Positions 205 through 36,979 of a stretch of 64,000 nucleotides of DNA are shown here, one piece after another. Under the pieces are notes generated by a model that did no database searches, was not told the DNA's origin, and saw only the letters and a program-made list of their open reading frames with translations. Each line of letters begins with the position of its first letter. Position 1 is the stretch's first letter. The translations under genes were made by a program, and so were the position numbers. This DNA comes from a virus: the IMG/VR virus record IMGVR_UViG_3300049427_000004, positions 64,001 through 128,000 of that record; one strand, given 5' to 3'.

Positions 205-265
205 TTTTAATTCCTCCTGTTTTTCCGATGAAAAGTTAGTTTTATGCTCTATAAAGTCTTTACAT

Positions 266-460
266 TTAAACTTTCTCTGTCTTCCTTTTCATAACATATT
301 TAACTACCATGTAAGCACCAAAGAATATAACTACGTAGGATATGGAACCAGACAATTCAATAACTGTATGAAGTAGCGGATGTGCGTCTGCCCACTTCCA
401 GAAATAAAAAGTCTCCATGTTACTTTCTTTACCGAGATCACCAATCAATTTTTCTAACAT
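266..460 (-). CDS. Small membrane protein
   Basis: ORF with RBS and one hydrophobic segment followed by a basic tail. Confidence 0.55.
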   Translation of the reverse strand: MLEKLIGDLGKESNMETFYFWKWADAHPLLHTVIELSGSISYVVIFFGAYMVVKYVMKRKTEKV

Positions 461-567
461 TTAATAATCCTCCTCATTATCTCTTGATAACAACTCAATG
501 AGGATATATTCTGTTGTGATTAAGAGAAAATGAGTACTGTAACTGAGTCGATCAATTCATATGTATT

Positions 568-885
568 TTATATTTTTACTTTTTTACGTTCTTCTAATGT
601 CTTCAAATAATAATCTTGATTCAAGCAGCCTCTACTTATCAACTCATCGACCATTGCTATGTATGTTGGTGCGTTATTCAAGTATTTAATACCTTTGTTA
701 CCCTCTCTACGTTCGCAGAGATGAATACAATTCAGTAAGTGACTGTCCTCCATATTATGTGGTTCATAAACCACTCCAGTTGATGTTGTCCATGTGGCTT
801 TTTTCTTTTGATTGAATTGATTAAACTTTGGATATTTACTACCATCAAGCATCCTATCTATGTAATGATCGGCTATTTCTCCCAT
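568..885 (-). CDS. Hypothetical phage protein
   Basis: 105-aa ORF in co-oriented cluster. Confidence 0.6.
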   Translation of the reverse strand: MGEIADHYIDRMLDGSKYPKFNQFNQKKKATWTTSTGVVYEPHNMEDSHLLNCIHLCERREGNKGIKYLNNAPTYIAMVDELISRGCLNQDYYLKTLEERKKVKI

Positions 886-939
886 GTGATTAAAGATCCC
901 TCCTTTCTATGGGTAATGAATGATGACTTTCAAGGACAG

Positions 940-1164
940 TTAATGACTCAAATGTTCATGCATTCCTTGACTAAAACAAGCAGCAGGATCATCGTCATAT
1001 CTTGGATGTTCATCTAGGAAATTAATTGCTGCATTCACACAATCATCAATTGTGAAACCTTGTAACAAATAATAAGATACATCACTTTCAATTGAGTCGA
1101 AATCCCTGTCATTAACTGAGTATGGATACTTTTCCGTTAAGACATCATATAACGTTTTCCTCAA
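940..1164 (-). CDS. Hypothetical protein
   Basis: 74-aa ORF in co-oriented cluster. Confidence 0.55.
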   Translation of the reverse strand: MRKTLYDVLTEKYPYSVNDRDFDSIESDVSYYLLQGFTIDDCVNAAINFLDEHPRYDDDPAACFSQGMHEHLSH

Positions 1165-1203
1165 TAACTCACCCCATAGTAAATAATTTTCATTGCCTAT
1201 GCA

Positions 1204-1437
1204 TTAGTCTCCAACTGGCTTAAATTCCTTTATGTAATCCACTTTAAGAGAATCACCCTCGCGAACACGATAGTGATTCATATGGCGTTCTAGAGCTTTA
1301 TGCGCTGCCTCAGAACTAACATCCTCGATAAACTTGTGAATGTTGATATTTTCTTCATCCACTTCTGTATGAATGATATTTGTTGTTACTTTTACATCTT
1401 TTATATCTTTATGTGTAATGGAAACTTCGTACTTCAT
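1204..1437 (-). CDS. Hypothetical protein
   Basis: AAGGAG RBS before ATG (MKYEVSI...). Confidence 0.55.
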   Translation of the reverse strand: MKYEVSITHKDIKDVKVTTNIIHTEVDEENINIHKFIEDVSSEAAHKALERHMNHYRVREGDSLKVDYIKEFKPVGD

Positions 1438-1624
1438 CTTCTCAACTCCTTTAGTAATCAATCATCTCTTCTCGGCCATTTTCAGTCAAAGCAAGATGTT
1501 CATCATATTTGAATTCTCTGGCTTTGTAGTCTTTCTTTGGCTTAGTGAATTTACCACTTGTGAATTTACGATCCTTCTGCATATATTGTTTCTTATTACG
1601 TTCGTCTTGTTTCATATTTCCTCC

Positions 1625-2152
1625 CTAGACTCCAAAAAAGTTAGCAATGTCATTCCAGTTTTTCACTCGCTTAAAACGATTTTCATCTTTATTATGAGAA
1701 GCATCAAAAAGAAGTTTATTATCTCCCTTAAAGGTCTCTAAGTTGTGAGGCGCATCATCGATTAGGCTATCAGCCAAACAAATGCTTTTATTAACTGCAT
1801 AGACTACATTCTCTCTTTTTATGAATGGAAAATGTGTTTTGATCCATTTTGCTTTTGCAGGAATAACAGAAGCATTCCTTGCTGCTGTGACAATAAAGAC
1901 GTCATATTTTTCAGTAAGTTTTTTTACAATTTCTTGTGAGCCGTGAATCACAGGTAGGTTTTCAAACATATCTGGAGTTAGCATCTGATAAATCTTCTTC
2001 CCACACTCAGGCCTTGTAAGTACATGCCAATCCCACATCGTAATATCAGACACGTTTAAAGTATCATTGTATGTATTGTTATATCTATCAACCCAAGGTG
2101 TAATTAAATCAGCTAAGACATGATCTTGATCAACACAAATTCTTTCTTTCAC
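1625..2152 (-). CDS. 5'(3')-deoxyribonucleotidase (HAD family)
   Basis: N-terminal VDQDHVLAD (DxDxV), VTAA and LIDDAPHN motifs. Confidence 0.85.
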   Translation of the reverse strand: MKERICVDQDHVLADLITPWVDRYNNTYNDTLNVSDITMWDWHVLTRPECGKKIYQMLTPDMFENLPVIHGSQEIVKKLTEKYDVFIVTAARNASVIPAKAKWIKTHFPFIKRENVVYAVNKSICLADSLIDDAPHNLETFKGDNKLLFDASHNKDENRFKRVKNWNDIANFFGV

Positions 2153-2154
2153 TT

Positions 2155-3717: not shown

Positions 3718-3725
3718 ATATACAC

Positions 3726-4295: not shown

Positions 4296-4392
4296 TCATA
4301 CCTCCTAGATATTCGTATTAATAAAGATACCTCCAGAGTATTGCTTATTATGACTTTCCTCTGGAGGTTGACTGTATAACTTATTAATTTAA

Positions 4393-4785: not shown

Positions 4786-4876
4786 TCATTAAAAAACTAG
4801 ACTCTGAAAAGTCAATGTTTATATAGGTTTTTCAGAGTCTGTAAGGCATTAAAATATCTCTTTCATGACCTATGTA

Positions 4877-7689: not shown

Positions 7690-8083
7690 ATGAAATGTAC
7701 GATTTATTATCTTTTGCTTTATAAGATGCAGCTACATCTCAATCAGCTCCTTTCGGTAGGATCAATTTATCACTTTGAATTAATAATTGTCAACGTTTTT
7801 ATTTTTTCTTTTTATTATCTATACTTCAACCTTTTACACTCAGATGCTTCTAGATAATAATGACACGAAACACTCCTTCAATCAGTTCCACTTCTTTTTT
7901 CTCAATATCAGAAACGAAAGTAATCCAACTCCTATATGCCTCTGATTCAAACACTTCACCATACTGCTTCAGAGTTTCAATATCTATGGTATATACTCTG
8001 TAACGATGACTCATGCGTGAATCCTCCATTCTCTTAAGGCTTCCTACCTATGCAGAGAAGCCTTGTAATTGAAATAAAATTGT

Positions 8084-9983: not shown

Positions 9984-10508
9984 CTACCGCCTCTTCACTC
10001 TTATTAAATCAAACCCTAAAACTAACCACATTGAAAGAAGGATTTCATTAACATAAAACGACATAACACAAAGTAATAAAGATATTATTTTCTTTGTGTA
10101 GAAGTGTTTTGATTCGTCATTGAAAGGTGCAAATATACTGTGCAAAACAATTGCAGTTATGAATGAAATAGTTGGATAATCTTGAACTATGTAGGATAAT
10201 GGAATCACTCCTAGTATAACTCCTATAGTTAAAAAGTAACAGATATCAACTGAAAAATGATGCCCACCATTCCACCATCTAATAAATGCAAATGAGATAA
10301 ATGACAAGAAAAGCTCTAACCATAATCCTGTTATCCACCCAAAGATTAAAAGTGTTAATGTAACTGCTATGTATAGAAGAATAATTTTCAATCTGTTTTG
10401 AATTTCCGTTAAGTCATTATTTTGTTTTTTTATATTTTCTTTTGTTTCATTTTCTAATTGATTCCAGATCCAACTTCCTATGTGTAAAGCTGCTCTTTTT
10501 AGTAGCAA
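9984..10508 (-). CDS. agrB: AgrB-family peptide-processing membrane protein
   Basis: IRWWNGGHHFSVDIC keeps the R-GG-H-x6-C catalytic motif; FAP motif; hydrophobic. Confidence 0.85.
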   Translation of the reverse strand: MLLKRAALHIGSWIWNQLENETKENIKKQNNDLTEIQNRLKIILLYIAVTLTLLIFGWITGLWLELFLSFISFAFIRWWNGGHHFSVDICYFLTIGVILGVIPLSYIVQDYPTISFITAIVLHSIFAPFNDESKHFYTKKIISLLLCVMSFYVNEILLSMWLVLGFDLIRVKRR

Positions 10509-10599: not shown

Positions 10600-10631
10600 A
10601 AAAAAAGAAAACCCTAGATCAATATCTAGGG
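10600..10631 (-). terminator. Intrinsic terminator after the mrpR-like gene
   Basis: CCCTAGAT/ATCTAGGG stem plus T-tract on the minus strand. Confidence 0.7.
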
Positions 10632-11600
10632 CAATTGATAAACACTTTTCAGAACTTCTTCATTTAAAACGTCCTGTTTTAGACGATATAAATCACCCTC
10701 GGTCTTGTCGTTAAATCGATCCATAATCATGTCATAGTGCTCATCCACTATTTGATTATTATTGGACACGTATAGCTCTTTTAAATAATAGAGCATACCG
10801 CTCTTCGCAATATTAGCTGGTGTGAATGCAGGTTCGTCGATGCTTTTTGCAATTCTAGCCAGTGCGCTATATACAATGCTTACTCTGGCTTCATTGAAGC
10901 TTTTTACGCGAGTTTTTGCTGTACGAATTATATAATTATTTTCAACTAAAGTTGTGAATTCTGACTTTATATCAGCTGCTGGATCTCCATTTGCTTTGTG
11001 ATACCGTTCTTCATTGTAAGCGTTCATACAGATATCAATAGTTTCTTCTGGAACAGGTATGGTTCTACTAAGAGTGTTATCATCATGTAGATGAAGTCTG
11101 TGATTCGCAATATCTATGCTTTCTCTTTGTAAATTTAGTAATTCAGAACCACCTGTGCCCATCACGCCCTGAAAAATCAATTCAATTATCGCTTTATCTC
11201 GATGATTTACTCTGCCTCTGATTATTTTATTGATTTCGTCTCTAGTCCAAAACCTTTTCAGTACTTTGTTCGCGAACATTTGCTTCCACTCAGTATCAAC
11301 GAAGTCTAAAGGGTTAGTTCCAGTCTTATATCCAAGTTCTAAATTCCAATCAATATATTTCGATACATATGCTACGTTTGCCCCACTGGAAGCTTTTGTG
11401 GCTGGTCTAAAGAGATAAAATAGCTTCAATAGATCATCACGATTGAAATCAGCTAAGTCCTTATCGAGTTGTTCTTCAAGAGGTTGAGACACTTTAAAGA
11501 TTCTTGCGTTAATTTCTCTCGTTCCCTTGCTTTTAGTTGCCAGATATTCAAATTTGCGGTCTTGATTATATAGTCGGTCTTCATAGACAACATTAGACAT
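10626..11600 (-). CDS. MrpR (YopR)-like lytic-cycle repressor, degenerate tyrosine-recombinase fold
   Basis: 324 aa; integrase-like layout with catalytic R and HxxR replaced (GTGGSELL, NIAKSG); follows a YopQ-like gene as in SPbeta; recognised by eye. Confidence 0.72.
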   Translation of the reverse strand: MSNVVYEDRLYNQDRKFEYLATKSKGTREINARIFKVSQPLEEQLDKDLADFNRDDLLKLFYLFRPATKASSGANVAYVSKYIDWNLELGYKTGTNPLDFVDTEWKQMFANKVLKRFWTRDEINKIIRGRVNHRDKAIIELIFQGVMGTGGSELLNLQRESIDIANHRLHLHDDNTLSRTIPVPEETIDICMNAYNEERYHKANGDPAADIKSEFTTLVENNYIIRTAKTRVKSFNEARVSIVYSALARIAKSIDEPAFTPANIAKSGMLYYLKELYVSNNNQIVDEHYDMIMDRFNDKTEGDLYRLKQDVLNEEVLKSVYQLP

Positions 11601-11621: not shown

Positions 11622-12968
11622 TTATTCAAACATGCTTCTTAATTCTTCTTGAAAATACTTTCTAATCAATTCTTTACTTTGGTTGGAATTTCTATTTCCT
11701 TGCTCTAGCATAATTTTGTCTAGTTTATTACCAGTTCCTTTTGTATAGTCAATCGTTTCAATTCCTTGAGTAATTAGACTAACAGGAAATTCTAATGATC
11801 CATTATATTTGTCGTAAATCAATTTTGCTAAAATCATAAATCCGCAGTGCATATTGTGATGATTAAACCAGCTTACAGAACGTCTTTTTTTCATGTCTGT
11901 TTTAAAATCTTCTGGGTATGCAGACAAGAAATATCCATAAAACTTTTTCAAGAAATCAGAAATCTCATACATCTCTTTTGTGCTTTCTGGTTTAAAGGTA
12001 ATATTTATTGAGTCAGCAAGTATTGAGTAGTTTGTGATCATATTCAAAGTCTTGCTTACAGTAGTCTTATCTGTTTCTACTCTATCTCTTAGTTCTGGAA
12101 TTTGAATCAAGTTTTTGGTTACTAGACCACCGAAAGAGTCATCTGTATTAAATCTTACTAAGTTCTTATCAAAGCGATTGACAGTATTCAATAATCCGAT
12201 ATGGTAACGAGCCATATTTAAATCATAATTACGAATCGAAACTTCAAATGATCCTTCTAAATCAGGATTCTCTTCCAAAGCTGCCATGGTTCCCATCAAA
12301 CGGTGCATGCCGTCTACAATGTTGAGGTTCGTTCCCTCTTCAATAATCAAATCCCCATCTTCGTATTCATAATTGTCATTTCCATCTGCAAGTATGTTGA
12401 AAGTTAATGTTGACTTAAGAAATTTACCTTCAAGCATTAATCTTGCGATATTATTCACGCTCTTTTTTATTACTGTAGGAGTTTTTTTGATGTTTCCTTT
12501 TGCCATTAACTTTTTCTTAGGTGCTCTTTGTGTTTCATAGTTATACGTCAAAAGACCTGCGTTCCATATCTTTTTAAGTTCTTGGTAAGTGATTAATGTT
12601 AAAAATTCATTGTGAGATGCTCTCAGTACACCTTCAATGACATAGGGAAATTCAAACCTGTCCTCTTGTTTCAGTTTAAGTTTTAATCCTTTTTGAATTT
12701 CTTTCTCGCTAAAAAATAATGTTGGAGCAATTCTTTCGTCTTTAGCAATCACATGCATTGCATGAATAATACAAATTAATTCTTCTTGGGTCAAGAAATT
12801 CAGTTTTTCATTATCATTCATGACTTGATCAAAAGTACCAAAAGTCATTTTGTGCTTCTGTGCGAGATATTCATCGATTTCTCTCAATTTGTCCTTATCT
12901 TTTGTCAAATCTGCAAACACTTCATTTATTGATTCTAAGATGTCTTTCTCTTGTGCTACTTCGCTCAT
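11622..12968 (-). CDS. YopQ-like DndB/DGQHR (ParB-like) domain protein
   Basis: IVDGMHRL motif; size and position next to the MrpR-like gene. Confidence 0.65.
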   Translation of the reverse strand: MSEVAQEKDILESINEVFADLTKDKDKLREIDEYLAQKHKMTFGTFDQVMNDNEKLNFLTQEELICIIHAMHVIAKDERIAPTLFFSEKEIQKGLKLKLKQEDRFEFPYVIEGVLRASHNEFLTLITYQELKKIWNAGLLTYNYETQRAPKKKLMAKGNIKKTPTVIKKSVNNIARLMLEGKFLKSTLTFNILADGNDNYEYEDGDLIIEEGTNLNIVDGMHRLMGTMAALEENPDLEGSFEVSIRNYDLNMARYHIGLLNTVNRFDKNLVRFNTDDSFGGLVTKNLIQIPELRDRVETDKTTVSKTLNMITNYSILADSINITFKPESTKEMYEISDFLKKFYGYFLSAYPEDFKTDMKKRRSVSWFNHHNMHCGFMILAKLIYDKYNGSLEFPVSLITQGIETIDYTKGTGNKLDKIMLEQGNRNSNQSKELIRKYFQEELRSMFE

Positions 12969-13217
12969 TTAAACATCTCCTCTGGTTTCACATTTATACG
13001 TTCATTAAACTGCGCAAACATTCTTACTTTAAATATTAACATATTAAGTGCAAAAAATACATAGCTGTTGCTTTGATTAAAAGCAAAAACTACATATTCT
13101 CTAACCACACATTCATTTTTGAGTCTTATACATAAAGTCCTAAAAAGTAACTCTGATAAAGTCAATGTTTATTAAGGGTTTTACGAAGACAAAAAGACGA
13201 TGAATTTCCTCTTTCAT

Positions 13218-14072
13218 CTACTCAAGAAACTCCACAAACACTGGAGTCATCATATTCCCACTTCTCAAAAATCCTCTATGCTTTACTCTACACTTTATCA
13301 CTGGTTGAATCCAAACACTATTTTCGTTCTCACCAGTTTTCAATGTTTCAGCTAAAGGATAAAACTCCTTTTTCTGTTTTGGCGAAATTCCAAACTCAAC
13401 AAAACCTTTTCCTTCATCATTTTTTAGATACCAACCTACACTATCTTTCCTATAACCAGTTATTACACAGTCTGAGTAATACCAGTTAATAATCTTGTAG
13501 AAAACGTCTTTTGGTCTTTTACCAGCCTGATATCGTGAATCTAGACGTTTGGCTACCATACCCTCCAGTTCATGCTGTTTGATTATCTCAAAAAGTATTT
13601 TCCCTTTCTCTGCTACATAAACAACTTTAGTCATATGTGGTTGATTCTCAACAACTTTATCTAAAATTTGTTTGCGCTCCAATAAAGGTAAATTCAAAAT
13701 AGACTTATTTTTATTAAATAGAATATCAAAAACAATAAATGTCGTTGGAAACTTTTTTACTGCAAATTCAACACTGATACTCTTCTTACTTGTTATTCGA
13801 CTCATTACAGCTTCGAAATCCTCTTTTAATGGGTTTTCTGGATCATAACAGACTAATTCTCCATCCAAAATAATACCCTTATCAACCTTAAGAGAAGTGA
13901 TTTCAGGTAAACTTGAAGTTATGTCATTACCATGACGAGTAAAGAGTTTAATTCCATTTTCAGAACTAATCAATTCCAGTCTAACTCCATTTGCTTTGGG
14001 TTCAAAAATAAATTTACTTGAATCAAAAGGAGTTTCACGACTATCAAGTAGCATAGGTTCAATGAACTTCAT
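13218..14072 (-). CDS. ATP-dependent DNA ligase (LigD ligase-domain type)
   Basis: EPKANGVR motif I, LDGELV, FDIL, EGMVAKRLDSRY. Confidence 0.9.
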   Translation of the reverse strand: MKFIEPMLLDSRETPFDSSKFIFEPKANGVRLELISSENGIKLFTRHGNDITSSLPEITSLKVDKGIILDGELVCYDPENPLKEDFEAVMSRITSKKSISVEFAVKKFPTTFIVFDILFNKNKSILNLPLLERKQILDKVVENQPHMTKVVYVAEKGKILFEIIKQHELEGMVAKRLDSRYQAGKRPKDVFYKIINWYYSDCVITGYRKDSVGWYLKNDEGKGFVEFGISPKQKKEFYPLAETLKTGENENSVWIQPVIKCRVKHRGFLRSGNMMTPVFVEFLE

Positions 14073-14908
14073 ATAGTTGCTTTCCTTTGTGTTAATTTCT
14101 TCTTAGTTCTTGGCGCTGTTTCTTCAGAAGGGACTATGAGAGGTTTCTTTGTTTTTTCAATTGAAGCCTGAAGCATATCCATTAAATTCGAACCTTCAGA
14201 CTCATTAGAACCAATTTTATCGACTTGATCATCTTCAATTTTTGCATTAATCAAAGTCATCAAATCTGACCTATATTCATTTTGATATTTTGTTGGATCA
14301 AATGAAACTGTCAGCTGCTCTATTAATAACTTTGCTACACTAAGTTCTCTTTCATCAACAGCTTCCTCGGAAATGTTAGGTACATTCTCTACTGGTCTTA
14401 CTTCATCTGGAAAATGAATGGTTTCTAGAATGATTGATTTTTTATATGTCCGTATAACGGCTAGTTGCTGATTTGAGCGCATTGTAATCTTGGCTATACC
14501 AACCTTGTTTGTGTCAGTTAAAACTCTCCTCAAGAGCGAATAGGCACGTTTATGACCATCTTCTGGTGATAGGTAATAACTGTTGTTGAAGTATATAGGA
14601 TCGATCTCTTCAATTTTAATAAAATCAACAACTTCTACATTCTTAGCCTCATATTTATTTTTAAGTTCTTGAATCTCACTATCATCAATAACAACATACT
14701 TATCTTTTGCATATTCATATCCTTTAACTACATTTCCGTCAGCAATAATTATATCTTTTTCAGATGTGGTTTTTACTTGTTTTATTGGTTCGAGCGTGTC
14801 CTTTTGGAGATTTTTAAATTTTATGTCCTTGTCCTCAACAGCACTATGTAACTTCACACTTATGTTTAGAAGACCAAAAGAAATATTCCCTTTCCAAAAT
14901 GTGTGCAT
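14069..14908 (-). CDS. ku: Ku NHEJ DNA end-binding protein
   Basis: WKGNISFGLLNISVKL, KGYEY, IDPIYFNNSYYL, TIHFPDEVR motifs. Confidence 0.92.
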   Translation of the reverse strand: MHTFWKGNISFGLLNISVKLHSAVEDKDIKFKNLQKDTLEPIKQVKTTSEKDIIIADGNVVKGYEYAKDKYVVIDDSEIQELKNKYEAKNVEVVDFIKIEEIDPIYFNNSYYLSPEDGHKRAYSLLRRVLTDTNKVGIAKITMRSNQQLAVIRTYKKSIILETIHFPDEVRPVENVPNISEEAVDERELSVAKLLIEQLTVSFDPTKYQNEYRSDLMTLINAKIEDDQVDKIGSNESEGSNLMDMLQASIEKTKKPLIVPSEETAPRTKKKLTQRKATI

Positions 14909-14935
14909 AAAAATACCACCCTTCAGTTTTACATT

Positions 14936-14965
14936 TAGGATGGTCTGGTTTTTTATCAAATATTC
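14936..14965 (-). promoter_or_regulatory. SigG-type forespore promoter of ku-ligase
   Basis: GAATA-N18-CATCCTA fits GHATR-N17/18-CATHHTA. Confidence 0.6.
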
Positions 14966-16222: not shown

Positions 16223-16249
16223 ATTATTTCCTCCTACGAAATCATCGTT

Positions 16250-16486
16250 TCAACAACTTCTAATTGAGTCTAGAATTATCATACTCCCTCCAAAAGCATC
16301 CATATCATCGTCCCAATAGATAGCACCAATTTTTGTTTCATTTTCCCAAGCCTCAATGCTAAAATTACATTCTTTTTCTAAAACACTCATTTTCATTGAT
16401 AGAGCCTTTGAGATATCTTTTGTCACTAGTTCAATAAAAGTCTCATCTGCTCCGTCCGCTCTTACTAAGTAAATCAATATTATCAC
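16250..16486 (-). CDS. Hypothetical protein
   Basis: ORF between two junction palindromes. Confidence 0.55.
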   Translation of the reverse strand: MIILIYLVRADGADETFIELVTKDISKALSMKMSVLEKECNFSIEAWENETKIGAIYWDDDMDAFGGSMIILDSIRSC

Positions 16487-16500
16487 ATCCTATAAATCCG

Positions 16501-16806
16501 TTATTTAATTGCCTGTATGTTTGTGACTGACAAAATAAAAGCAGCATAATTAAATATTCGATTCTTCTGTTCAGGGCTGATAGATTTTCCTTTATAGGAA
16601 AAATTAATATGAGTTACAGGTGTAGATAATTCACTATGACCCTGTGCTTCCACAACTTTAAAATCATCAAGTGATTCAATAAATCTGTATCCATTGTCAT
16701 ATAGTTTGTCAAATGATTCTAACAACAGGTCATCACTCATATGATCACTCCTTCTTCTTTCTTGGTTTCTTAAATAATGTTTTAGATAAGTCATACGGAT
16801 CGACAT
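16501..16806 (-). CDS. Hypothetical protein (true start may be internal, MSDDLL)
   Basis: ORF track; internal AGGAG RBS. Confidence 0.45.
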   Translation of the reverse strand: MSIRMTYLKHYLRNQERRRSDHMSDDLLLESFDKLYDNGYRFIESLDDFKVVEAQGHSELSTPVTHINFSYKGKSISPEQKNRIFNYAAFILSVTNIQAIK

Positions 16807-18431: not shown

Positions 18432-18467
18432 TATTGATCAGTCCTCTTTTTGTACTGATAAAACAAC

Positions 18468-18695
18468 TCATTTATTGTAACTTTTTAATTGCTCGATAAT
18501 TCCAGCTATCTCATTTTGTAATGACAGGAAGTCATTCAAATCCCCAGTCAGAGACACTGTACCATCTTCCAAGATTTTAAGTTCAGCAGCATTGATATCG
18601 AGATAGTTGTCAGTATTAACATTCAAATATGTAATATCATAATCTGCATGATTCAGTTCAACTTTTACTTTCATTTTTCCATCCTCCTTCCTCAT
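18468..18695 (-). CDS. Hypothetical protein
   Basis: AGGAGG RBS before MKVKVE. Confidence 0.55.
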   Translation of the reverse strand: MRKEDGKMKVKVELNHADYDITYLNVNTDNYLDINAAELKILEDGTVSLTGDLNDFLSLQNEIAGIIEQLKSYNK

Positions 18696-18707
18696 GGAAC
18701 TAGTATT

Positions 18708-19010
18708 TCATTCAGATTCCTCATTGTTGGAATCGATATCAATCTTTACTTGTCGTTTCAACCAATCCAAAACTTTTCTGCCATCAGATGCTTTGTAGAA
18801 ATCTAGAAAATCATCAATTTGAACATGGAAAAAATGATCATTAAGATACTCTTCCAGTTTGGAAGCTGTAATATAAAAATAGAAGTCACTAAATTGATTG
18901 TTCGCTATTAACTGGATCTTATCTGACTTATTTCTGCCCATGTTGTTATGTATCTCCCTGTTGTCAGTAATGAAACCTTTTTTATGTACTTCCATTATTA
19001 TTACGAACAT
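18708..19010 (-). CDS. Hypothetical protein
   Basis: ORF track; overlaps the upstream ORF by 29 nt. Confidence 0.45.
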   Translation of the reverse strand: MFVIIMEVHKKGFITDNREIHNNMGRNKSDKIQLIANNQFSDFYFYITASKLEEYLNDHFFHVQIDDFLDFYKASDGRKVLDWLKRQVKIDIDSNNEESE

Positions 19011-19413
19011 AATTGTATAATATTTGAGTCTGCCTTTTAGTTAATTTTCTAATACCACACATCAACTGCTCTTGATTGCATAATTCCATGTAATTAATCA
19101 TTTCTTCGTAAGACGCAGGTAGTAGTTCTTCTTTCTTAAATGTAATATGTTTAGATAACTTTGAATAAACTGAATCTCTTTTACTAGTAAGTATTGCATA
19201 GACTCTTCCACTACTAAGATTACAGATCCTTGATATCTCATCAACCGATTTGCATTCAATATAATATAGCCTAAGAATTCCTCTTTGCTCTTCGCTTAAA
19301 TAATCGTTGAAATAGAACAAGTTAATTTGCATTTCATCCCAGTAACGATTGATTAAATTTTGAACCGATCCTAACATCCTACCTTTAGTCTTTCTTCTCA
19401 TGTCTGGGTTCAT
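18982..19413 (-). CDS. Sigma-70 region-4-like HTH protein
   Basis: LSEEQRGILRLYYIECKSVDEISRICNLSSGRV. Confidence 0.6.
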   Translation of the reverse strand: MNPDMRRKTKGRMLGSVQNLINRYWDEMQINLFYFNDYLSEEQRGILRLYYIECKSVDEISRICNLSSGRVYAILTSKRDSVYSKLSKHITFKKEELLPASYEEMINYMELCNQEQLMCGIRKLTKRQTQILYNYVRNNNGST

Positions 19414-19665
19414 GTTGACTTCTCCTTAAATAATCATTTCCTACCTTTGAAATCCGTGTTTTATCGTATTTTAAATTCTCTATAAAAAGGCCTGCTTGTT
19501 CGCCAGAAACCTTCCATTCCAGAACAAGTGATGAATAGTCCTTCAGTCCGCTTCTCCATTGAAATTCCGAAAATGTAAAAAATAATATTGAACATTTTAA
19601 TCATATCTTTATCACACCTTTTAATCAGATAAATTCAGACTTTTAACCACTCATCTAATGAGTCT

Positions 19666-19947: not shown

Positions 19948-19996
19948 ATAAACATCTCCTCAAATTTAAGTGCATGAAATTAGGTTTTCATTATCC

Positions 19997-21681: not shown

Positions 21682-21766
21682 ACTATTGTCACCCTTTCCC
21701 TATTAAATGTGTCATTTATTTGGTTAGAGGAATACCTTTTTCTATTTTCATTTGAATAATTTTATT

Positions 21767-21925: not shown

Positions 21926-21957
21926 ATTTTCTCCTCTCGAAATGCGGATTTCATTTG

Positions 21958-22179
21958 CTAATCTGCCGCGACATGTGCCGAAAGTTTGTAGTCGAATGCC
22001 TGAATGACTAAATTAGAACCATCCTTAAAACTTATAACTATTGATCGTTTCTCAATATTAATGTTATCGATAGTTGCATTTGTTAAATGGTCAATGATTT
22101 CTTGGTTATCTTCAATTCTGAACATAGTTTCCTCCCTATTAAATACCGATTTTAACACCTTATTTTTCAGAATGGGCAA
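21958..22179 (-). CDS. Hypothetical protein
   Basis: ORF track; GGGAGG RBS before MFRIED. Confidence 0.5.
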   Translation of the reverse strand: MPILKNKVLKSVFNREETMFRIEDNQEIIDHLTNATIDNINIEKRSIVISFKDGSNLVIQAFDYKLSAHVAAD

Positions 22180-22411: not shown

Positions 22412-22632
22412 TTCTCCTTTTTTATAAATTATTGTTGTATGATTCGATTAGTCCATTAACAATTTCTCGTTCTTTAATCCAATTTCTTATCTCTTGACCA
22501 GTGTGCTCACACAGATCACAGGTTTCTTCATCTTCTGGGATTCCTCCGTATGAACATGCTTGACAATTCCAAGTTTGAGGTAATTTAAATCTTATTCTCA
22601 TGTCAATTCTCCTTATAAAGTAGTGATTTCAT

Positions 22633-22809: not shown

Positions 22810-22865
22810 TTGCCTTATCTCCTTTTGTATATTAATTTAGTGAATAAAAGAACAATTTTAATACC

Positions 22866-23781: not shown

Positions 23782-23812
23782 TTTTATTTTTAAAGTACTT
23801 GAAAATCACTAT

Positions 23813-24061
23813 TTATTGCTCTTCTCGTTGCATCTCAAGCCATTTACTATATCGGATACATCTCGTTTCTGCGTTTGAACCAATAAAAACTAAGTCACCC
23901 CAATTTTTAGACAATGGCTCAATCCCTTTAGGAACTTGCTCTGTGAACACTTGCCATTTGCCATCAATCAAAGCTTCATTGACTGCTTCATCTTCCCAAC
24001 TTTCAACCTTTAAAAACTGAAAAGCATTATTTGAATAATAGAAATTCTTTTCTTTAGTCAC
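23813..24061 (-). CDS. Hypothetical protein
   Basis: ORF with RBS. Confidence 0.55.
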   Translation of the reverse strand: MTKEKNFYYSNNAFQFLKVESWEDEAVNEALIDGKWQVFTEQVPKGIEPLSKNWGDLVFIGSNAETRCIRYSKWLEMQREEQ

Positions 24062-24365: not shown

Positions 24366-24985
24366 GTTTATTCCTCCTCTTACAATCGCTCTTTCATAGT
24401 CTGTTATTCATATCTGCTTTGGATCTTCCATCCAGTTAATTGACCTTCCCTATACAAAGGTAACGCCTCATTGTAATTATGTGGTAACTTTTGAACATTT
24501 AGTTTAAAATCGTCTTCTTCACTTCTGTTATATTCTCTTTTGATAATCACTACTTATCTACCCCCTTATCCGATAAATGACTTATTTCATCAGGATTGCA
24601 TCAATAATTTTCTGACAAGAATTATTGTAATGCGCCTGAGCCAGTTCCATACTTTTCTCTAAAGTATACACATCTCTCGCAATATCATTACCATCAAACC
24701 AAATCATATATGTATCATTATTTCCTTTTGAAATGAGATAATGACTTCTCTTAATTCAAAAGTCAACCCATGTCTCGTATTTATGTAACAAGGTTGGCTT
24801 AAGCTCCAATTTCTTAAACATATTATTTTCTCCTTTTCACTTTAAAATAAAATACTTCTTTTATCACCCTACACATATTCATTTTCAATTACCTTCACGA
24901 TAACTATCTTCCCATCTACTCCTACTGCTTTGAATCCGAGTGTTTTCATTTTTCTCATCTCCTATTATATGAATCCTTTCATTAC

Positions 24986-25585: not shown

Positions 25586-25623
25586 TTATCATTATCACCT
25601 TTCTGCTATTAGTTATAAAATAT

Positions 25624-25809
25624 TCATTTTATGTACTTAGTAAACTGCTCAGTCACTTCATTTCCTTTATCGAAAATCGCTCCATTCTCCTTCACCTCAA
25701 AACCAGATAATTTGAGCAATTCAATAATTTCATCCTTTGTTTTACTAAAGTAAAAATCATCAGTGTCTTTTTGGAACTTTTCTAATTTTGATGACACACT
25801 TACCACCAC
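25624..25809 (-). CDS. Hypothetical protein
   Basis: ORF between two junction palindromes. Confidence 0.5.
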   Translation of the reverse strand: MVVSVSSKLEKFQKDTDDFYFSKTKDEIIELLKLSGFEVKENGAIFDKGNEVTEQFTKYIK

Positions 25810-25829
25810 CTTATGAAAGGATCAATTTA

Positions 25830-26102
25830 TTAGCCGATAGCAACAATTTGTCTAACTAAGTTCATTCTATAATTCGGTTCGCTCCACATAATTTTTTTTC
25901 TTTCTTCTACCTCATATTCAGCAGCATCTTTTTCTTCTTTCAGTTTATCAATATTATCATTCAGTATCATGTAATTTCGTTGAATCTCCAGAAAGATTTC
26001 TTCCAACTCTGAGTTAGGATTTTTGAGTACAAACGATTCAAGTTTATCAATTGATTGTTCTAACTTCATCATATTCAACCCCCAATGAAAATATAGATTC
26101 AT
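25830..26102 (-). CDS. Hypothetical coiled-coil protein
   Basis: ORF track. Confidence 0.5.
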   Translation of the reverse strand: MNLYFHWGLNMMKLEQSIDKLESFVLKNPNSELEEIFLEIQRNYMILNDNIDKLKEEKDAAEYEVEERKKIMWSEPNYRMNLVRQIVAIG

Positions 26103-26274: not shown

Positions 26275-26448
26275 TCATATTTTAAAGAGCATAACTTTTT
26301 TATCACCGATCTTCACACTGGCCTTTCTTGTTCTTTCAGCTTCAGTAAGTATTGATATCACATTACCAAATCCCAAATTTTCAAAAAATTCCGCAATGCC
26401 TTCTTTGCTAAACATTGCATCACGAGTACCCCAAATTTTATAACTCAT
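26275..26448 (-). CDS. Hypothetical protein (57 aa, [11 protein letters not shown]...)
   Basis: Hand-translated; overlaps the mazF stop codon. Confidence 0.5.
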
Positions 26449-26870
26449 CTATATATCCCCTCTTTTATTAAATTTTTTATGTATTGTATTTTTTCTTCCG
26501 ATTTAAATATATCCAGTAACCCAGATGAGACTAAAAGCGCAAGATCTACTTTCATCATATCTTCATCATCTAATACTGTTATTTTATTTTCATAATCTAA
26601 ACGTTCTTTGTCTACAGTCCTCACTTGCTCCAGAAGGATAACTGAGTCACGTTCAATTTTGTATTTTTCAGTTTTTATTTCAACATGAGTTGGAAGTTTA
26701 GCTTTTTGTATCTGAGAAGTAATAGCTGCCACTGCTACAGTAGGACTAAATCGGTTTCCAACGTTATTTTGATACACGAGTACAGGTCGTAGCCCACCTT
26801 GCTCTGATCCCGTTACAGGAGATAAATCTGCTAAGTAAATATCCCCTCTTTTAATCCATGAAGACGACAT
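26445..26870 (-). CDS. mazF: MazF/PemK family endoribonuclease, close to Bacillus NdoA
   Basis: [54 protein letters not shown]. Confidence 0.92.
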
Positions 26871-27230: not shown

Positions 27231-27440
27231 CTACTGAGAAGGCTCCTTTATCGTCCATATTTCGTACACAGTAACCCCTAGAGCCTCTGCAATCAAATAT
27301 GCCCTATATAATGATGGTTCACTATTGTTGTTCGCCAGCATCGTTATGGTCGTTCTACTGATCCCTGTGAGCTGTGCTAACGTCTTCTGATCCATCTTAT
27401 TGCGCCAAAGCAGTATCTTAAGATTGTTTTCAATTTCCAT
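27231..27440 (-). CDS. XRE-family HTH regulator
   Basis: MDQKTLAQLTGISRTTI...EPSLYRAYLIAEALG. Confidence 0.85.
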   Translation of the reverse strand: MEIENNLKILLWRNKMDQKTLAQLTGISRTTITMLANNNSEPSLYRAYLIAEALGVTVYEIWTIKEPSQ

Positions 27441-27502
27441 TGACTCACCTCATTCTAAGTTGTTAACAAAATTCAATTCAACTTTGCACAATTCAGGATG
27501 CT

Positions 27503-27733
27503 TTGCATATGTTATGGTATGAGACACGAAGAAAGGATATGACAAACAAAATGAAGAAATGTGACTATTGCAATGAAGTGAAAGTTGTAAATTTAACCGA
27601 CGAGGAACATGACTTATGTTTAAACTGCTTAGAGGGATTACAAATTAATTGGCTGGAGGTGATTGAGATTGATGCACATACATTGGAGATTAGCGGAGTT
27701 GTGGACAATACAATTAAAAAGAGAATTATCTGA
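27503..27733 (+). CDS. Hypothetical zinc-binding protein
   Basis: CDYC...CLNC; divergent from the HTH gene. Confidence 0.45.
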   Translation: MHMLWYETRRKDMTNKMKKCDYCNEVKVVNLTDEEHDLCLNCLEGLQINWLEVIEIDAHTLEISGVVDNTIKKRII

Positions 27734-27926
27734 AAATGAATTAGAGGAAATGAAACTGTGTATGCAATTGAATGCTTCTTTTGCTTACAAAATGGCTGAT
27801 CTCTACAATTTAGCGCTAATTGCTAATATGACTGATGACATAGATTATTTACATGAGGTTTGCAGCTCAATAGATAAACTGGAGATTGAATACAAATTAA
27901 AGAAGCCAACGCTTAAGGAACGTTGA
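27663..27926 (+). CDS. Hypothetical protein
   Basis: GGAGGTG RBS; followed by a terminator at about 27963-27992. Confidence 0.55.
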   Translation: MRLMHIHWRLAELWTIQLKRELSENELEEMKLCMQLNASFAYKMADLYNLALIANMTDDIDYLHEVCSSIDKLEIEYKLKKPTLKER

Positions 27927-28019
27927 CTTCGTGAGAAAAGGATAAGTCGAATATAATATATGCGCCTTCATTGAAATTGATGAAGGTTTTTTGTAATTGA
28001 AATCAACATTTCAATGACC

Positions 28020-28235
28020 TTATTCGTATCCTAGCTCAATGATTCCAACAACACTTCCTAAAGTGTCGCCTGCGACATCTAAAGCGGTTCGTATGTCAAC
28101 AGCCTCCACTTCATCCTCTTCAAAAATAATTGCGTTTTCCAATGTTCCATCTTGGTTAAGTGGTACTTTGAAATAAGTAATCTTGAATTTTTTCATATTT
28201 AATTTCACCTCCTTTAATTTGCAAACAACAGTCAT
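28020..28235 (-). CDS. Hypothetical protein
   Basis: GGAGGTG RBS before MKKFKI. Confidence 0.5.
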   Translation of the reverse strand: MTVVCKLKEVKLNMKKFKITYFKVPLNQDGTLENAIIFEEDEVEAVDIRTALDVAGDTLGSVVGIIELGYE

Positions 28236-28510
28236 TTTATTATCTCATCAATTTCATCAGCCTCTATATACTCCCATTCATATAAATCTCTAGGATTGCA
28301 GTTAAGAGCATCTGAAAGGCAAACTGCTACAGATAATGTCATATTATCTCTTCGACCAGTACAATAAAATGATATTATTCTGAAATCAATTCCTGATTTA
28401 TGAGCCAACATAGTCTGGTTCATGCTTCTTGATTTGATTACTTCTTTGAGGAGACACTTGCCTTGAACCAATTTCTTCATAATTGTCACCTCATAAATTA
28501 CTTGATTCAT
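28232..28510 (-). CDS. XRE/Cro-like HTH protein
   Basis: GKCLLKEVIKSRSMNQTMLAHKSGI...LNCNPRDLYEW. Confidence 0.75.
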   Translation of the reverse strand: MNQVIYEVTIMKKLVQGKCLLKEVIKSRSMNQTMLAHKSGIDFRIISFYCTGRRDNMTLSVAVCLSDALNCNPRDLYEWEYIEADEIDEIIK

Positions 28511-28985: not shown

Positions 28986-29005
28986 CTCCTCTTGAAAGAC
29001 TGGTT

Positions 29006-29452
29006 TTAACGTCTTAGAAAATTATATGCCTTGGATCGAATTGTACTATAATCTTTTTCATTACACACTGCACTTGAATTGACACAATCATTAAGTATTT
29101 CTTTAGCCAGCTTTAATTCATCTAGAAGAGTATTAATGTGCTCGATATACTCTCTTTGAGTTAAAAGTACATTACTTCCTAACCCTTTTTCATCTAATTT
29201 TTCAACATGATCCTGACTGATTTTAGCTATGCGCTCAATCTCACTGATTGCAGTCATCTCTTCATCTCCCTTTAACTTTCCGAATATATTCTCCATACCT
29301 TCTCGTGTAACTGCCCAACTTGTTCCGATTTTACGTATGCTGCCTTCTGGAAAATCATCTTTCCGTTTACGTAGCGTTGAATCATCAATACCCCATTTTG
29401 TGACAGCTTCTTTTGAGTCCATGATGTCAGGATCGTTTAAGTTGATTCTCAT
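29006..29452 (-). CDS. Excisionase-like HTH protein with an extra C-terminal segment
   Basis: MDSKEAVTKWGIDDSTLRKR...RKIGTSWAVTREGM. Confidence 0.65.
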   Translation of the reverse strand: MRINLNDPDIMDSKEAVTKWGIDDSTLRKRKDDFPEGSIRKIGTSWAVTREGMENIFGKLKGDEEMTAISEIERIAKISQDHVEKLDEKGLGSNVLLTQREYIEHINTLLDELKLAKEILNDCVNSSAVCNEKDYSTIRSKAYNFLRR

Positions 29453-29516: not shown

Positions 29517-29901
29517 TACATAAAAAATTAAAAATCATCCTATAGACTTACAATAAAGCAAGGCTATAACATAATCATTTTAACTTACTCTTCATCAATC
29601 CTTAGGGTGCTCATATCTGCTTCTCTAACATTCAAAGTCTTAAGAACACCTTTTACCAGCTCAACTTCTGTTGATGCATACGTGCCATGATTTACTCCAT
29701 CAATGTAAAGAACAGCCCCACCATCTTTCTTGATTAGCAACTGAACTTGTTTCATAAACTTACACCTCCCTCTTTAATTCTATAATTGTATTATACCACA
29801 ATTTTCAATTTTTCTCAACTGAACACAATCATAATGATTATTTGGTTTTAAAGTAACGGTGATGAAACGGCTCTTTAATTGGGTAAAAGAAAAGCCCTGA
29901 G

Positions 29902-30541: not shown

Positions 30542-30729
30542 AATATTACCTCCAATTCAACCTATGTATTTTTAATTTCGTTATAAAGTTCAATTGCTAA
30601 TTTGAAGTCAATCAAATTTCCATTACGAGTAATGATGTAAGGTTTTCCCTGAACAACACGAGCTTTCATCAATTTTACCTCCTTTATTAATGAATTAGTG
30701 TTTAAAACAATATTTTCATCGTGATAAAA

Positions 30730-31074: not shown

Positions 31075-31110
31075 TCCATTATTTTATAATTTATTGATAA
31101 AATAGATATT

Positions 31111-31311
31111 TTACTGGCTGTATTTTATGAGATGTGCGTAGTATTCATAATCATTGTCAGTCGCACTCATAATGCAAGAATTAACTTTCATTCTTCTAAC
31201 TTTCCCATTGTCTACCCAACCTTCCTTACTTAAAGCTTCTACATGATTATCTCGTTCTTCAATGGTGCCATATGTGTATTCAACTACCTCATAATTATTT
31301 ATCTTTTTCAT
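31111..31311 (-). CDS. Hypothetical protein
   Basis: AAGGAG RBS. Confidence 0.55.
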   Translation of the reverse strand: MKKINNYEVVEYTYGTIEERDNHVEALSKEGWVDNGKVRRMKVNSCIMSATDNDYEYYAHLIKYSQ

Positions 31312-31350
31312 CTTATTAATCTCCTTTTAGGTATTGAAATGGTCATTTGA

Positions 31351-31596
31351 TTACCCTATAACTTGCTGCCACTCGTCAACACATTCAGAACATTCTTTAG
31401 TCTCTTCGATTACTTGACCTTTGCTATTTACAGTGTATTTAATTGTAGAGTGTACACCACAAATATAGCACTTTCCGAAACCTTCTTTTTGCTCATACTC
31501 TCCTGTAAATATGGAGACATCTGGTTCAATAATTATGATTGACACATACATCATCCTTCCATAGATATGTGTATTTAGACCGTAAACCTTTGTCAA
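31351..31596 (-). CDS. Hypothetical zinc-ribbon protein
   Basis: CYIC...CSEC. Confidence 0.45.
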   Translation of the reverse strand: MTKVYGLNTHIYGRMMYVSIIIIEPDVSIFTGEYEQKEGFGKCYICGVHSTIKYTVNSKGQVIEETKECSECVDEWQQVIG

Positions 31597-32555: not shown

Positions 32556-32626
32556 AATAAAACACCTCTTCTGTTATATTGAGATATCAGACCGTCACCG
32601 TTACAATGTAACGGCCTGATATTGTT

Positions 32627-34933: not shown

Positions 34934-35145
34934 TATTGATTCGCTCCTTTGCGCTTAATGCGCTATGTATTATTGTCTTCCTCTTGTTTCTAATTATAAA
35001 GGTTTATATATGTAAAGTCAATTAAATCATTTCCTTTTTCAATATTTTGTTTTTAATGAGTTCTGCCCAATAAAGCAGCAAATTTAATACCCATAGACAG
35101 AGAAAAAAGCGGATCGGCTCCGCTCTGGTTTGTTTATTTAGTTCT

Positions 35146-35460
35146 CTATTCAAATTTAAAGCAAACCGTAGCACCTTTTAAATAAACTTCTAATGTTGCG
35201 CCCATGTCTGGATACACTTGCATCAACTCTTGATCATCTTCAAGCGCTTCCAGCTCGTTAACTAGCAATTCAAATTGTTGTTTATTTTCTTTATTCTTGA
35301 TGTAGATGTAAAACGAATCAGCCGACACCTGCCATTCATTAAGAGTGCAGTATGTTGCAAAACCTCCTGCATGAACACCAATTGTCATCTGTTTACTTTG
35401 ATTGTTTTCCAAAGTATTTACGATTTCTTTAACCATTTGTTCATGTGTAATTGTTTGCAT
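35146..35460 (-). CDS. Hypothetical protein
   Basis: AAGGAG RBS. Confidence 0.6.
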   Translation of the reverse strand: MQTITHEQMVKEIVNTLENNQSKQMTIGVHAGGFATYCTLNEWQVSADSFYIYIKNKENKQQFELLVNELEALEDDQELMQVYPDMGATLEVYLKGATVCFKFE

Positions 35461-35638
35461 AATAACCGCTCCTTATTGGATATGTATTTTCTTTCCTTAC
35501 CTTTATTATACACTTTATACATTTAAATACAAGTGTTATTTTTGATATTTCGCTTTTATTTTAAGGCTCATAAATGTTACATTTCATAACCTGCCACCTA
35601 GAGAAGTTTTACCCTCTCTAGGCTTCTCAGAATCATTT

Positions 35639-36724
35639 TTAAGCTGCTTTCTTTGCGTTTCTATACGGTAACACTAGATAATTATAGTCAATCATTGCAG
35701 GTGTGTATTCACCTGTCATTTTAAACACAATGTATTCATTCTTATTGTTTTTTAATCCATCAAGTAACAATTCAAGGTTGAAGCATATTGACAAGTCTTC
35801 ACCTATTTTTTTTACATCCAATTCACTTGTAAGTGTGTTTTTCGAATCTTTAGAACCAACTTTAATATATAGTTTATCATTTTTAACGTCTATGTTTATT
35901 GTCCCAGTTTTATCAGCAATTTCTTTCATGAGCTGCAATTCCTCAACCAGTTCTTTTTTATTGATTTTAACTTCACTTTTAAAGTGTTGCGGAATGATTT
36001 TCGTTGTATCTGGATACGTCCCCTCAATCAATCGTAAAAGCATAGTAACATTATCAAAAACTATTCTAACATGTCTATTGTGACTATCAACGGTGAAAGT
36101 AAACCCACCTTTGTATTGTTTATCAATGAACGAAGAAATTAGGTTTAGAGACGTTGAAGCGATGACCATATCATTGGTATTCTCATTGCTTTCAATAGTC
36201 GCTAGAGCTAATCTATGGCGGTCACACGCTGTCACAGCCTTACCTTTGAATAGTAAACCTTGCAACACTGGAGTTGATTCCGAAACAGCACAAGCATAAG
36301 TAATTGAAATTACTTCTAACATCTTTTCTTTTGAAATTGTAAACGCTGGTTGAGTGAATTCAGTTGACGGGATGTCTGGGTAGTTGACTGGATCTAGTCC
36401 TATGTATTTAATATTTCGTTTACCTGATTCGATTTTATCAGATGCGATAGTCATATATGTATCGTTTAATTTTTGGATAAGTTTCAATGTTTCTTTGGTG
36501 AGGACAATCGAACCAGATTCAATAACTTCAGCTTCTTTTAATTCAATGATAGTGGGCATTACTTCATGATTAACTGCAATCAATCTAACTGATTCTGTTG
36601 CGATAATTTTGATGCCATTTAACATTTCTAATTTTGATTTACTTGGTGTCACCTTTAAAAGATTTTTGATTGCAGTTTGGATTTCTTTAGTCATGACGTT
36701 AATTTTCATTATTACACTCTCCAT
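35639..36724 (-). CDS. dnaN: DNA polymerase III beta sliding clamp
   Basis: 361 aa; PVLQG, ACDRHRLA, RLIEGTYPD, FNLELLLDGL motifs. Confidence 0.85.
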   Translation of the reverse strand: MESVIMKINVMTKEIQTAIKNLLKVTPSKSKLEMLNGIKIIATESVRLIAVNHEVMPTIIELKEAEVIESGSIVLTKETLKLIQKLNDTYMTIASDKIESGKRNIKYIGLDPVNYPDIPSTEFTQPAFTISKEKMLEVISITYACAVSESTPVLQGLLFKGKAVTACDRHRLALATIESNENTNDMVIASTSLNLISSFIDKQYKGGFTFTVDSHNRHVRIVFDNVTMLLRLIEGTYPDTTKIIPQHFKSEVKINKKELVEELQLMKEIADKTGTINIDVKNDKLYIKVGSKDSKNTLTSELDVKKIGEDLSICFNLELLLDGLKNNKNEYIVFKMTGEYTPAMIDYNYLVLPYRNAKKAA

Positions 36725-36979
36725 TTATATTATTTGTTTTAATACAGTTTTGATAAAATTAAAATTTCGTAGGCTAATTTAGCTCAACATAGTATGGTTC
36801 ATTTGGATAATTTGGATCAATATCTCCGCTCACATAATCAACATTTTTTTTATTTAACATTTCGCAAAGTGTATTATATACTTCCTTATCAAAAGTTGTT
36901 ACTGTTTCTCCTGCTAAAACTCTTTTATAAAGTTTGTTTACCATTATATCCACTCTCCATTATCATATTTTTTATTATT

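Follow-up and report, generated by a model that had tools for sequence, protein, structure and literature searches.

What are the short inverted repeats that punctuate the small-gene region of this phage? The window analyzed here is a stretch of 64,000 nucleotides, bases 64001 to 128000 of a 178,866-bp phage genome (IMG/VR viral contig IMGVR_UViG_3300049427_000004), which is that of a large SPbeta/Tsamsa-type phage. Genes in the window up to about 39 kb, like those of the preceding 64 kb, are on the minus strand and mostly small (genes were called with an in-house script based on open reading frames, Shine-Dalgarno sequences, and codon usage, not with a standard gene finder). Between them recurs an 18-bp dyad, consisting of two inverted arms around a 6-bp center, of which an initial annotation had listed 26 copies and which it had read as the mark of a shuffled, integron-like cassette array. 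The results described below lead us to propose, with middling confidence, that the dyads are ordered crossover joints for cassette exchange, each having a center specific to its position.

The element itself is not in question. The strict pattern WTRAAA-N6-TTTYAW had 15 matches in the window, compared to 1.56 expected from shuffles, and when the spacer of WTRAAA-Nk-TTTYAW was varied from N0 to N30, N6 gave 15 matches in the window and 41 in the genome versus 0 to 5 and 1 to 8, respectively, at the other spacers. None of the other arm orders tested gave a comparable peak at k = 6. A side peak at TTTYAW-N17-WTRAAA represents the second arm followed by a Met-Lys (ATGAAA) start and arises because TTTCAT is the reverse complement of ATGAAA. 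At gene junctions, the relaxed consensus WTRAAW-N6-WTTYAW had 66 exact copies genome-wide, versus 1 to 6 at other spacings from N3 to N9; inside genes it was not enriched (8 at N6 versus 7 to 15 at other spacings). A half-site matrix refined on the matches found ~75 sites at N6 versus ~10 at other spacings, and the same matrix with flanks added found 82 versus 0 to 4. The full-genome matrix scan and the junction test thus bear out the initial annotation in its basic observation, that inverted-repeat sites stand at gene ends.

All 26 sites on the earlier list are at gene junctions, 16 of them matching the relaxed consensus exactly and 10 having one mismatch. Nineteen score at least 9 with the core matrix and are taken as firm; the other seven, at 7.3 to 8.4, are weak one-mismatch candidates, and roughly half of such one-mismatch matches at junctions are expected as background. 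Ten more junction copies were found beyond that list (marked as new in Table 1), and the number of firm junction copies in the window is 29. The earlier statement that no convincing copy occurs in the core region at 44 to 64 kb also stands, as the three matches there (52113, 58852, and 60021) are inside genes and occur at the background rate. Genome-wide, co-directional junctions in the early block on the minus strand carry a dyad in 64 of 198 cases, versus 4 of 71 for junctions elsewhere.

The dyads have a regular anatomy. When the copies are oriented with transcription, TRA in arm 1 doubles as the upstream gene's stop codon in 13 of them, and most are within about 12 nt of a stop codon. From the second arm to the next start codon the distance is mostly 13 to 34 nt, with a GGAGG-type Shine-Dalgarno sequence immediately after the arm, so the earlier description of sites near stop codons and just before ribosome-binding sites holds. 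A few copies precede a second repeat (discussed below) instead of a ribosome-binding site, and some are at convergent junctions or before promoter-like repeats. Purine richness of the flanks is confined to the sense strand. In relaxed form the arms read ATRAAW, and they extend over 6 to 7 bp if a seventh-position preference is included, while the center is strictly 6 bp. The initial annotation had noted that spacers often begin with T; they do, and this reflects the seventh-position preference, which is symmetric (not A after arm 1, not T before arm 2) and not peculiar to one end.

Variable positions that mirror each other in the two arms are independent: at positions 3 and 16, the most frequent combination is A/C, which does not pair (23 of 65; Fisher p = 0.44). 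This lack of arm-arm covariation argues that the dyad, judged from its sequence, is a duplex DNA site read half-site by half-site by a twofold symmetric, two-part protein and not an RNA or DNA hairpin. All 74 centers in the phage genome are distinct, which is only marginally more than chance would give.

The dyad is not confined to this phage. In the model phage SPBc2, a de novo scan for arm-spacer-arm excess turned up the same element: TAAAA-N6-TTTTA is present 34 times against ~1.7 for other spacings, and here too it stands at stop codons and ahead of ribosome-binding sites. The dyad is likewise enriched in phi3Ts (30 copies), in Tsamsa, Izhevsk, and Sophrita (21 to 23 copies), in a staphylococcal SPbeta-like phage (17 versus ~2.5), in Clostridium phage c-st (31 versus ~8), and, with TRAAA arms, in a 218-kb provirus that we designate G001 (50 versus ~9); in Lactococcus phage 949 the enrichment is weak at best. 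Comparison across genera, of this phage with SPbeta, Tsamsa, c-st, and other phages, gave center sharing close to background. The SPBc2 database record carries no annotation at the dyads, and the SPbeta literature searched, which did not extend to the 1999 genome paper, describes only a different element, SPBRE. No close relative suited to breakpoint mapping turned up: a megablast search of 12 kb of the window against the phage collection gave no match. The YopQ-like protein had no match in viral contigs; its search led to one Paenibacillus prophage (65% amino acid identity), 21 kb of which showed no enrichment with this phage's matrix. The only other contig with a 199-amino-acid protein of this phage is 100% identical over 20.6 kb, and no variant or joint was seen among the freshwater metagenome contigs of the only sequencing run containing the stretch, which is its probable source.

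In pairs of relatives, centers have been kept and neighboring genes replaced. SPBc2 and phi3Ts, with 33 and 30 sites, share 21 identical centers, all of them colinear. At 5 of these 21 sites both 60-nt flanks are at random-level identity, at 4 to 6 one flank is 100% identical and the other unrelated, and the ends of blastn blocks repeatedly coincide with sites. In a k-mer profile, SPBc2/phi3T homology steps greater than 0.7 fall at 7 of 33 dyads versus 4 of 132 other junctions (Fisher p = 0.0013). Tsamsa and Izhevsk have 19 identical centers in common (control, 0), 5 of them with both flanks unrelated and 5 with one. Even between Tsamsa and Sophrita, which belong to different genera, 8 centers are identical (control, 0), 6 with both flanks unrelated; four consecutive sites follow the same order of centers, with inter-site distances of 136, 210, and 274 nt in one phage versus 265, 1,264, and 277 nt in the other.

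A similar picture emerged from this phage and G001, which are colinear and have 67 of 297 genes in common, at 21 to 81% amino acid identity. Site pairs in syntenic intervals number 228, of which 4 have identical centers and 7 differ by one mismatch; among 5,084 nonsyntenic pairs the numbers are 1 and 35 (binomial P = 3.7e-7 for the syntenic excess). One adjacent pair, 24573 and 24847 in the window, matches G001 116003 and 116215 in center and order. By blastn, the site itself is the sole nucleotide similarity in 1.3 kb, and tblastx found no gene common to the two genomes between or beside these sites; homologous genes lie about 1 to 2 kb off on both sides. In three of the four identical-center pairs the arms differ, as exchange within the center would predict because each arm travels with its own gene. 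Since each center is kept in the same order while the neighboring genes are replaced, the copies are most likely joints for gene swaps.

The sequence of events that we envisage is as follows. Each dyad, lying after the stop codon of a small gene and ahead of the next gene's ribosome-binding site, would serve as a crossover joint; when related phages are co-resident, exchange inside the 6-bp center would replace a gene to one side of the joint. The swapped gene would bring its own half-site along with its stop codon or Shine-Dalgarno sequence, and matching centers would hold exchanges in register, much as in heterospecific lox/FRT sets. The catalyst would be a protein of the tyrosine recombinase family, either the YopP-like protein encoded in the window (Table 1) or a second recombinase encoded outside it. 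We infer exchange within the center, tyrosine recombinase-type catalysis, and the need for center identity from comparison of genomes.

The YopP-like protein (28% identity to SPBc2 YopP; E = 5e-33) appears to be an intact tyrosine recombinase and is a candidate for action at the dyads. It matches the Pfam family Phage_integrase (PF00589) with 45.8 bits against a cutoff of 27.1, with SAM_4 also above cutoff, and in an alignment to XerA (5hxy) the catalytic R, K, HxxR, H, and Y are kept. When solved structures were searched with phmmer, no match reached E = 0.001; weak matches (E ~0.008) were to XerA and to the integron integrase IntI4 (2a3v), the latter (E = 0.008) confined to the C-terminal box. 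The dyad closest to the gene (43869) is over 5 kb away, and the dense array is over 10 kb away. Another canonical tyrosine recombinase (PF00589, 80 bits) is encoded beyond the window, at genome positions 143430 to 144500 (+), or 79430 to 80500 relative to the window; it occupies the position of an SPbeta YomM-like gene in G001, and a dyad at genome position 144497 overlaps its stop codon. At least one canonical tyrosine recombinase is encoded by each of the dyad-bearing phages examined, and the phyletic pattern is therefore not discriminating.

Several observations weigh against gene exchange at the dyads. Many SPBc2/phi3T breaks are at dyad-free junctions (18 of 132 at a looser threshold), and three site pairs between this phage and G001 that are anchored on orthologous genes have no common center. 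The initial annotation had asked whether breakpoints in relatives fall in the spacers: homology steps favor dyads, centers and their order are kept where flanks are replaced, and many breaks occur elsewhere. The arms, at 6 to 7 bp, are shorter than the 11 to 13 bp found in known tyrosine recombinase core sites. As for the enzyme, SPbeta YopP has a lysine at the second catalytic arginine, c-st has dyads and no YopP-like match, and phage 949 has a YopP-like gene and enrichment that is weak at best. The recombinase at 49156, suggested earlier as possibly serving the array, is an apparently intact candidate. In addition, the placement between stop codon and Shine-Dalgarno sequence and the bias toward early genes would also suit a role in gene expression.

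Three phi3Ts/SPbeta laboratory hybrids were mapped on their parents, of which only Hyb2 was examined at the level of single differences. Both Hyb2 crossover intervals are segments bounded by dyads that are identical in the two parents, so that the crossovers can be placed no more finely than these segments and ordinary homologous recombination fits equally well. In a three-way alignment, SPBc2 113663 to 115043 and 123203 to 128097, both bounded by dyads, contain no diagnostic SPBc2/phi3Ts difference; two dyads flank mtbP, the dyad at 128076 (SPBc2) marks the end of the nrd block, and crossovers of laboratory hybrids fall inside such segments.

Of known systems, we favor a comparison with heterospecific lox/FRT sites or pdif modules over one with integrons. 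The general form of a tyrosine recombinase core site, inverted arms around a center of 6 to 8 bp, is present in the dyad, with arms shorter than usual. lox and FRT sites have 13-bp arms and 8-bp centers, heterospecific sets of them are man-made, and Cre and FLP exchange only sites with the same center. The dyads are like such sets in having inverted arms and short centers that are distinct within a genome and ordered between relatives; they differ in their shorter arms and centers, in being dozens of natural sites, and in that their enzyme and chemistry are putative. The pdif sites of Acinetobacter plasmids are 28 bp long, with two different 11-bp arms, and are served by the host XerC/XerD (PMC6449649). 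Here too there are many short sites with 6-bp centers flanking accessory genes, and pdif modules are found in different contexts; unlike pdif modules, which move between replicons, genes at dyads are replaced at a fixed address.

The likeness to integron cassettes is in layout: a ribosome-binding site, an open reading frame, and a 3' site, repeated in arrays of small accessory genes. An attC site is 57 to 141 bp long, has R''/L''-L'/R' boxes with a GTTRRRY core, recombines as a folded single strand, and needs IntI, attI, and Pc. At 18 bp and with ATRAAW arms, the dyad lacks the attC-type fold, the GTTRRRY core, and any covariation. An attI/Pc platform was likewise not seen, and the YopP-like protein is a generic Phage_integrase. 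The label "integron-like" given by the initial annotation is therefore not supported in its strict sense. What survives of its shuffled cassette array is the replacement of genes at sites whose centers and order are kept in relatives.

The promoter-early stem-loops (PeSLs) of T4-type phages offer another parallel, being promoter-plus-terminator cassettes that recombine by homology (PMC2839356). Like PeSLs, the dyads are short intergenic repeats in plastic regions of a large phage, where small genes are inserted, deleted, or replaced. Unlike them, the dyads show no promoter (by eye, no sigma-A-type −35/−10 arrangement fits around them in either orientation) and no stable stem, their arms offering A:T pairs only and showing no covariation, and each has a position-specific center.

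The mosaicism of phage genomes is usually ascribed to rare illegitimate or short-homology recombination plus selection. If the dyads are indeed crossover joints, gene boundaries would carry dedicated, addressable joints through which modules could be exchanged, and this would explain how accessory genes turn over fast with gene order kept. Co-resident relatives could then swap single accessory genes, including antidefense genes, without disturbing gene order. A broader proposal, which we put forward more tentatively, is that large temperate phages of Firmicutes (SPbeta-like and Tsamsa-like phages and their relatives) may carry out a natural form of recombinase-mediated cassette exchange, with 6-bp centers as addresses and a YopP/YomM-type catalyst. 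The exchange hypothesis is directly testable in the SPbeta plus phi3T/Bacillus subtilis model system.

The main rival, a serious one though less probable than exchange, is that the dyads are stoperator-like sites at which a dimeric phage DNA-binding protein, for example of the helix-turn-helix (HTH) type, blocks or tunes early transcription. The ~80 junction dyads would then be occupied, and recombination would be a by-product of short common sequence. Conserved arms, a free spacer, and independent half-sites are the anatomy of an operator, the sites occupy the short gaps between co-directional early genes and are rare among late genes, and several HTH proteins are encoded within the array. 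There is also precedent in the cluster A mycobacteriophages, where 20 to 30 repressor sites across the genome block elongation; each such stoperator is a 13-bp site that lacks symmetry and a variable center, follows the direction of transcription, and is bound by a monomeric repressor (PMC6550527). The dyads resemble them as tens of repressor-type sites spread over short intergenic regions of co-directional genes, and this placement fits; the dyad, however, is symmetric. Operator function leaves unexplained why junction-specific centers are identical and colinear where arms and flanking genes differ and why all centers in the genome are distinct. If the dyads are regulatory after all, SPbeta-type phages would have, in addition to MrpR/SPBRE, another operator network spanning the genome, and that too would be new.

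The initial annotation had offered a more specific regulatory alternative, that the dyads are roadblock operators for the recombinase-fold repressor MrpR, a homolog of which (29% identity to SPBc2 yopR) is encoded in the window. A recombinase fold is well suited to a site built of inverted arms and a spacer, and the MrpR family is present in seven of the eight genomes compared, the one missing it being phage 949, where dyad enrichment is weak at best. However, chromatin affinity purification sequencing (ChAP-seq) of SPbeta MrpR gave ten peaks, all on SPBRE and at promoters, SPBRE being a 15-bp promoter-associated motif (PMC10516654). We recovered an SPBRE core, AAAAATATGTATATA-like or AAAAATATGTATAT-like, from 9 of the 10 upstream regions named in that study, and its sequence is unrelated to the 34 SPBc2 dyads, so that the dyad does not belong with the SPBRE/MrpR operators. 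SPBRE and the dyad are both repeated intergenic elements of the same phage family, SPBRE being bound by a recombinase-fold protein; they differ in length, in the association of SPBRE with promoters and its ten bound sites, and in sequence (PMC10516654). Because SPbeta MrpR binds a different element, the MrpR operator hypothesis is improbable, and the homolog in this phage probably binds an element other than the dyad.

This phage has a separate repeat of its own in its longer intergenic regions, which also speaks against dyads as MrpR sites. The repeat, TATAAACATTGACTT, is often preceded by AAAACCYT and has a TTGACT −35-like hexamer; in three cases a copy lies 20 to 30 nt past a dyad on its downstream side. 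The repeat may be a promoter/operator and may correspond to SPBRE of SPbeta; it is a better candidate for the MrpR site than the dyad.

It is more improbable still that the dyad functions in RNA, forming a small hairpin or binding a protein between cistrons to affect processing, stability, or translational coupling. Such a function would suit the location on the mRNA between stop codon and Shine-Dalgarno sequence and the purine-rich flanks of the sense strand, and is contradicted by the independence of the arms with their prevalent A/C mismatch, by the instability of an all-A:U six-pair stem, and by the copies at convergent junctions and before promoter-like repeats. That AT-rich junctions give rise to the pattern through composition alone, with a stop codon and A-run followed by a T-run before the Shine-Dalgarno sequence, would account for the frequent identity of TRA with the stop codon and for the N17 side peak, yet the chance of this is negligible, being refuted by spacer scans in which only N6 is enriched, at least 10-fold in the same junction context, and by the enrichment of the same dyad in distant phages.

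Table 1. Dyads and associated features of the window (window coordinates unless marked; scores are core matrix scores; "new" denotes copies absent from the initial annotation)
Feature	Position	Strand	Remarks
Dyad, new	29..46		Score 13.4; between minus-strand genes
Dyad ATGAAA-AGTTAG-TTTTAT	228..245		Exact match; junction
Dyad, new	916..933		Score 16.0; junction
Dyad	4849..4866		Exact match; second repeat TATAAACATTGACTT ~25 nt downstream on gene strand
Dyad	7690..7707		Score 15.4; long intergenic region
Dyad	13200..13217		Score 16.8; abuts stop of ligase-like gene (0 nt), then second repeat
Possible degenerate dyad	16236..16253		ACGAAA arm; one mismatch; score 7.7; junction
Dyad	16492..16509		One mismatch; score 9.4; junction
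Dyad	18458..18475		Score 15.0
Dyad	18694..18711		ATGGAA arm; one mismatch; score 9.0; junction
Dyad	19447..19464		Center TCCGTG common to G001 103537; syntenic interval; arms differ
Dyad, new	19629..19646		Score 13.6
Dyad ATGAAA-TTAGGT-TTTCAT	19974..19991		Exact match
Dyad	21702..21719		One mismatch; score 9.9; junction
Possible degenerate dyad	21937..21954		Score 7.7; junction
Dyad, new	22138..22155		Score >=9; junction
Possible degenerate dyad	22615..22632		Score 8.4; junction
Dyad, new	22844..22861		Exact match
Dyad	23799..23816		Score 9.1; junction
Dyad	24573..24590		Center common to G001 116003; first of adjacent conserved pair
Dyad	24847..24864		18/18 bases identical to G001 116215; second of adjacent conserved pair
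Dyad	25615..25632		Exact match
Dyad	25813..25830		Score 15.8
Dyad, new	26085..26102		Score 13.9
Dyad	27997..28014		Exact match; convergent junction, beside plus-strand terminator-like hairpin
Dyad, new	28493..28510		Score 13.7
Dyad	28992..29009		Center GACTGG as in G001 130254; syntenic interval; flanks without homology within 2.5 kb
Dyad	29862..29879		One mismatch; score 12.5
Dyad	30702..30719		Exact match
Possible degenerate dyad	31097..31114		Score 7.6; junction
Possible degenerate dyad	31334..31351		Score 7.7; junction
Possible degenerate dyad	35542..35559		Score 7.3; better copy at 35570
Dyad, new	35570..35587		Score 15.8
Possible degenerate dyad	36753..36770		Score 8.0
Dyad, new	37222..37239		Score 14.1
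Dyad, new	43869..43886		Exact match; long intergenic region
Second repeat TATAAACATTGACTT	4809-4823, 13159-13173, 39575-39589	-	Weaker copies at 44237 and 10557; also at genome positions 141473 and 153591
MrpR (YopR) homolog, recombinase-fold repressor	10626-11600	-	Pfam MrpR_N_CB and MrpR_C_cat
YopQ/DndB-like protein	11622-12968
YopP-like tyrosine recombinase, candidate enzyme	49156-50208	-

Other genes of the window deserve brief mention. The gene at 9984 to 10508 (−), adjoining that for the MrpR-like repressor, codes for an AgrB-family protein (Pfam PF04647; E = 7e-13) and may mark a peptide-signaling module where SPbeta has arbitrium. An end-joining pair, consisting of adjacent ATP-dependent DNA ligase-like and Ku-like genes, occupies 13218 to 14959 (−) according to PHROG matches. 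Within the dyad-rich array, Pfam identified a PemK/MazF-type toxin domain protein and small HTH_3 proteins at 26445 to 26870 (−) and 27231 to 28480. Pfam also gave a sigma-70 region 4 domain in a small protein of 143 amino acids at 18982 to 19413 (−), which may be a phage sigma-like or anti-sigma factor. The HTH_59 protein at 29006 to 29452 had no homolog in a large protein collection.

Beyond the array, the two halves of an exonuclease V/Dda-like helicase (PHROG 4412; profile positions 8 to 409 and 426 to 740) are separate neighboring open reading frames at 45759 to 47999 (−) and 48060 to 48851 (−). An HNH endonuclease gene adjoins them, and the pair may be a split gene or a homing-endonuclease neighborhood. 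There is a weak match to the tubulin PhuZ at 51137 to 52234 (+), and part of a 926-amino-acid protein encoded at 57788 to 60568 (+) is 26% identical to the single-subunit RNA polymerase YonO of SPbeta. Lastly, a 32-bp stretch upstream of a methyltransferase gene (34992 to 35023) is 94% identical in G001 (L005 8046 to 8077) amid unalignable surroundings and may be a conserved regulatory element.

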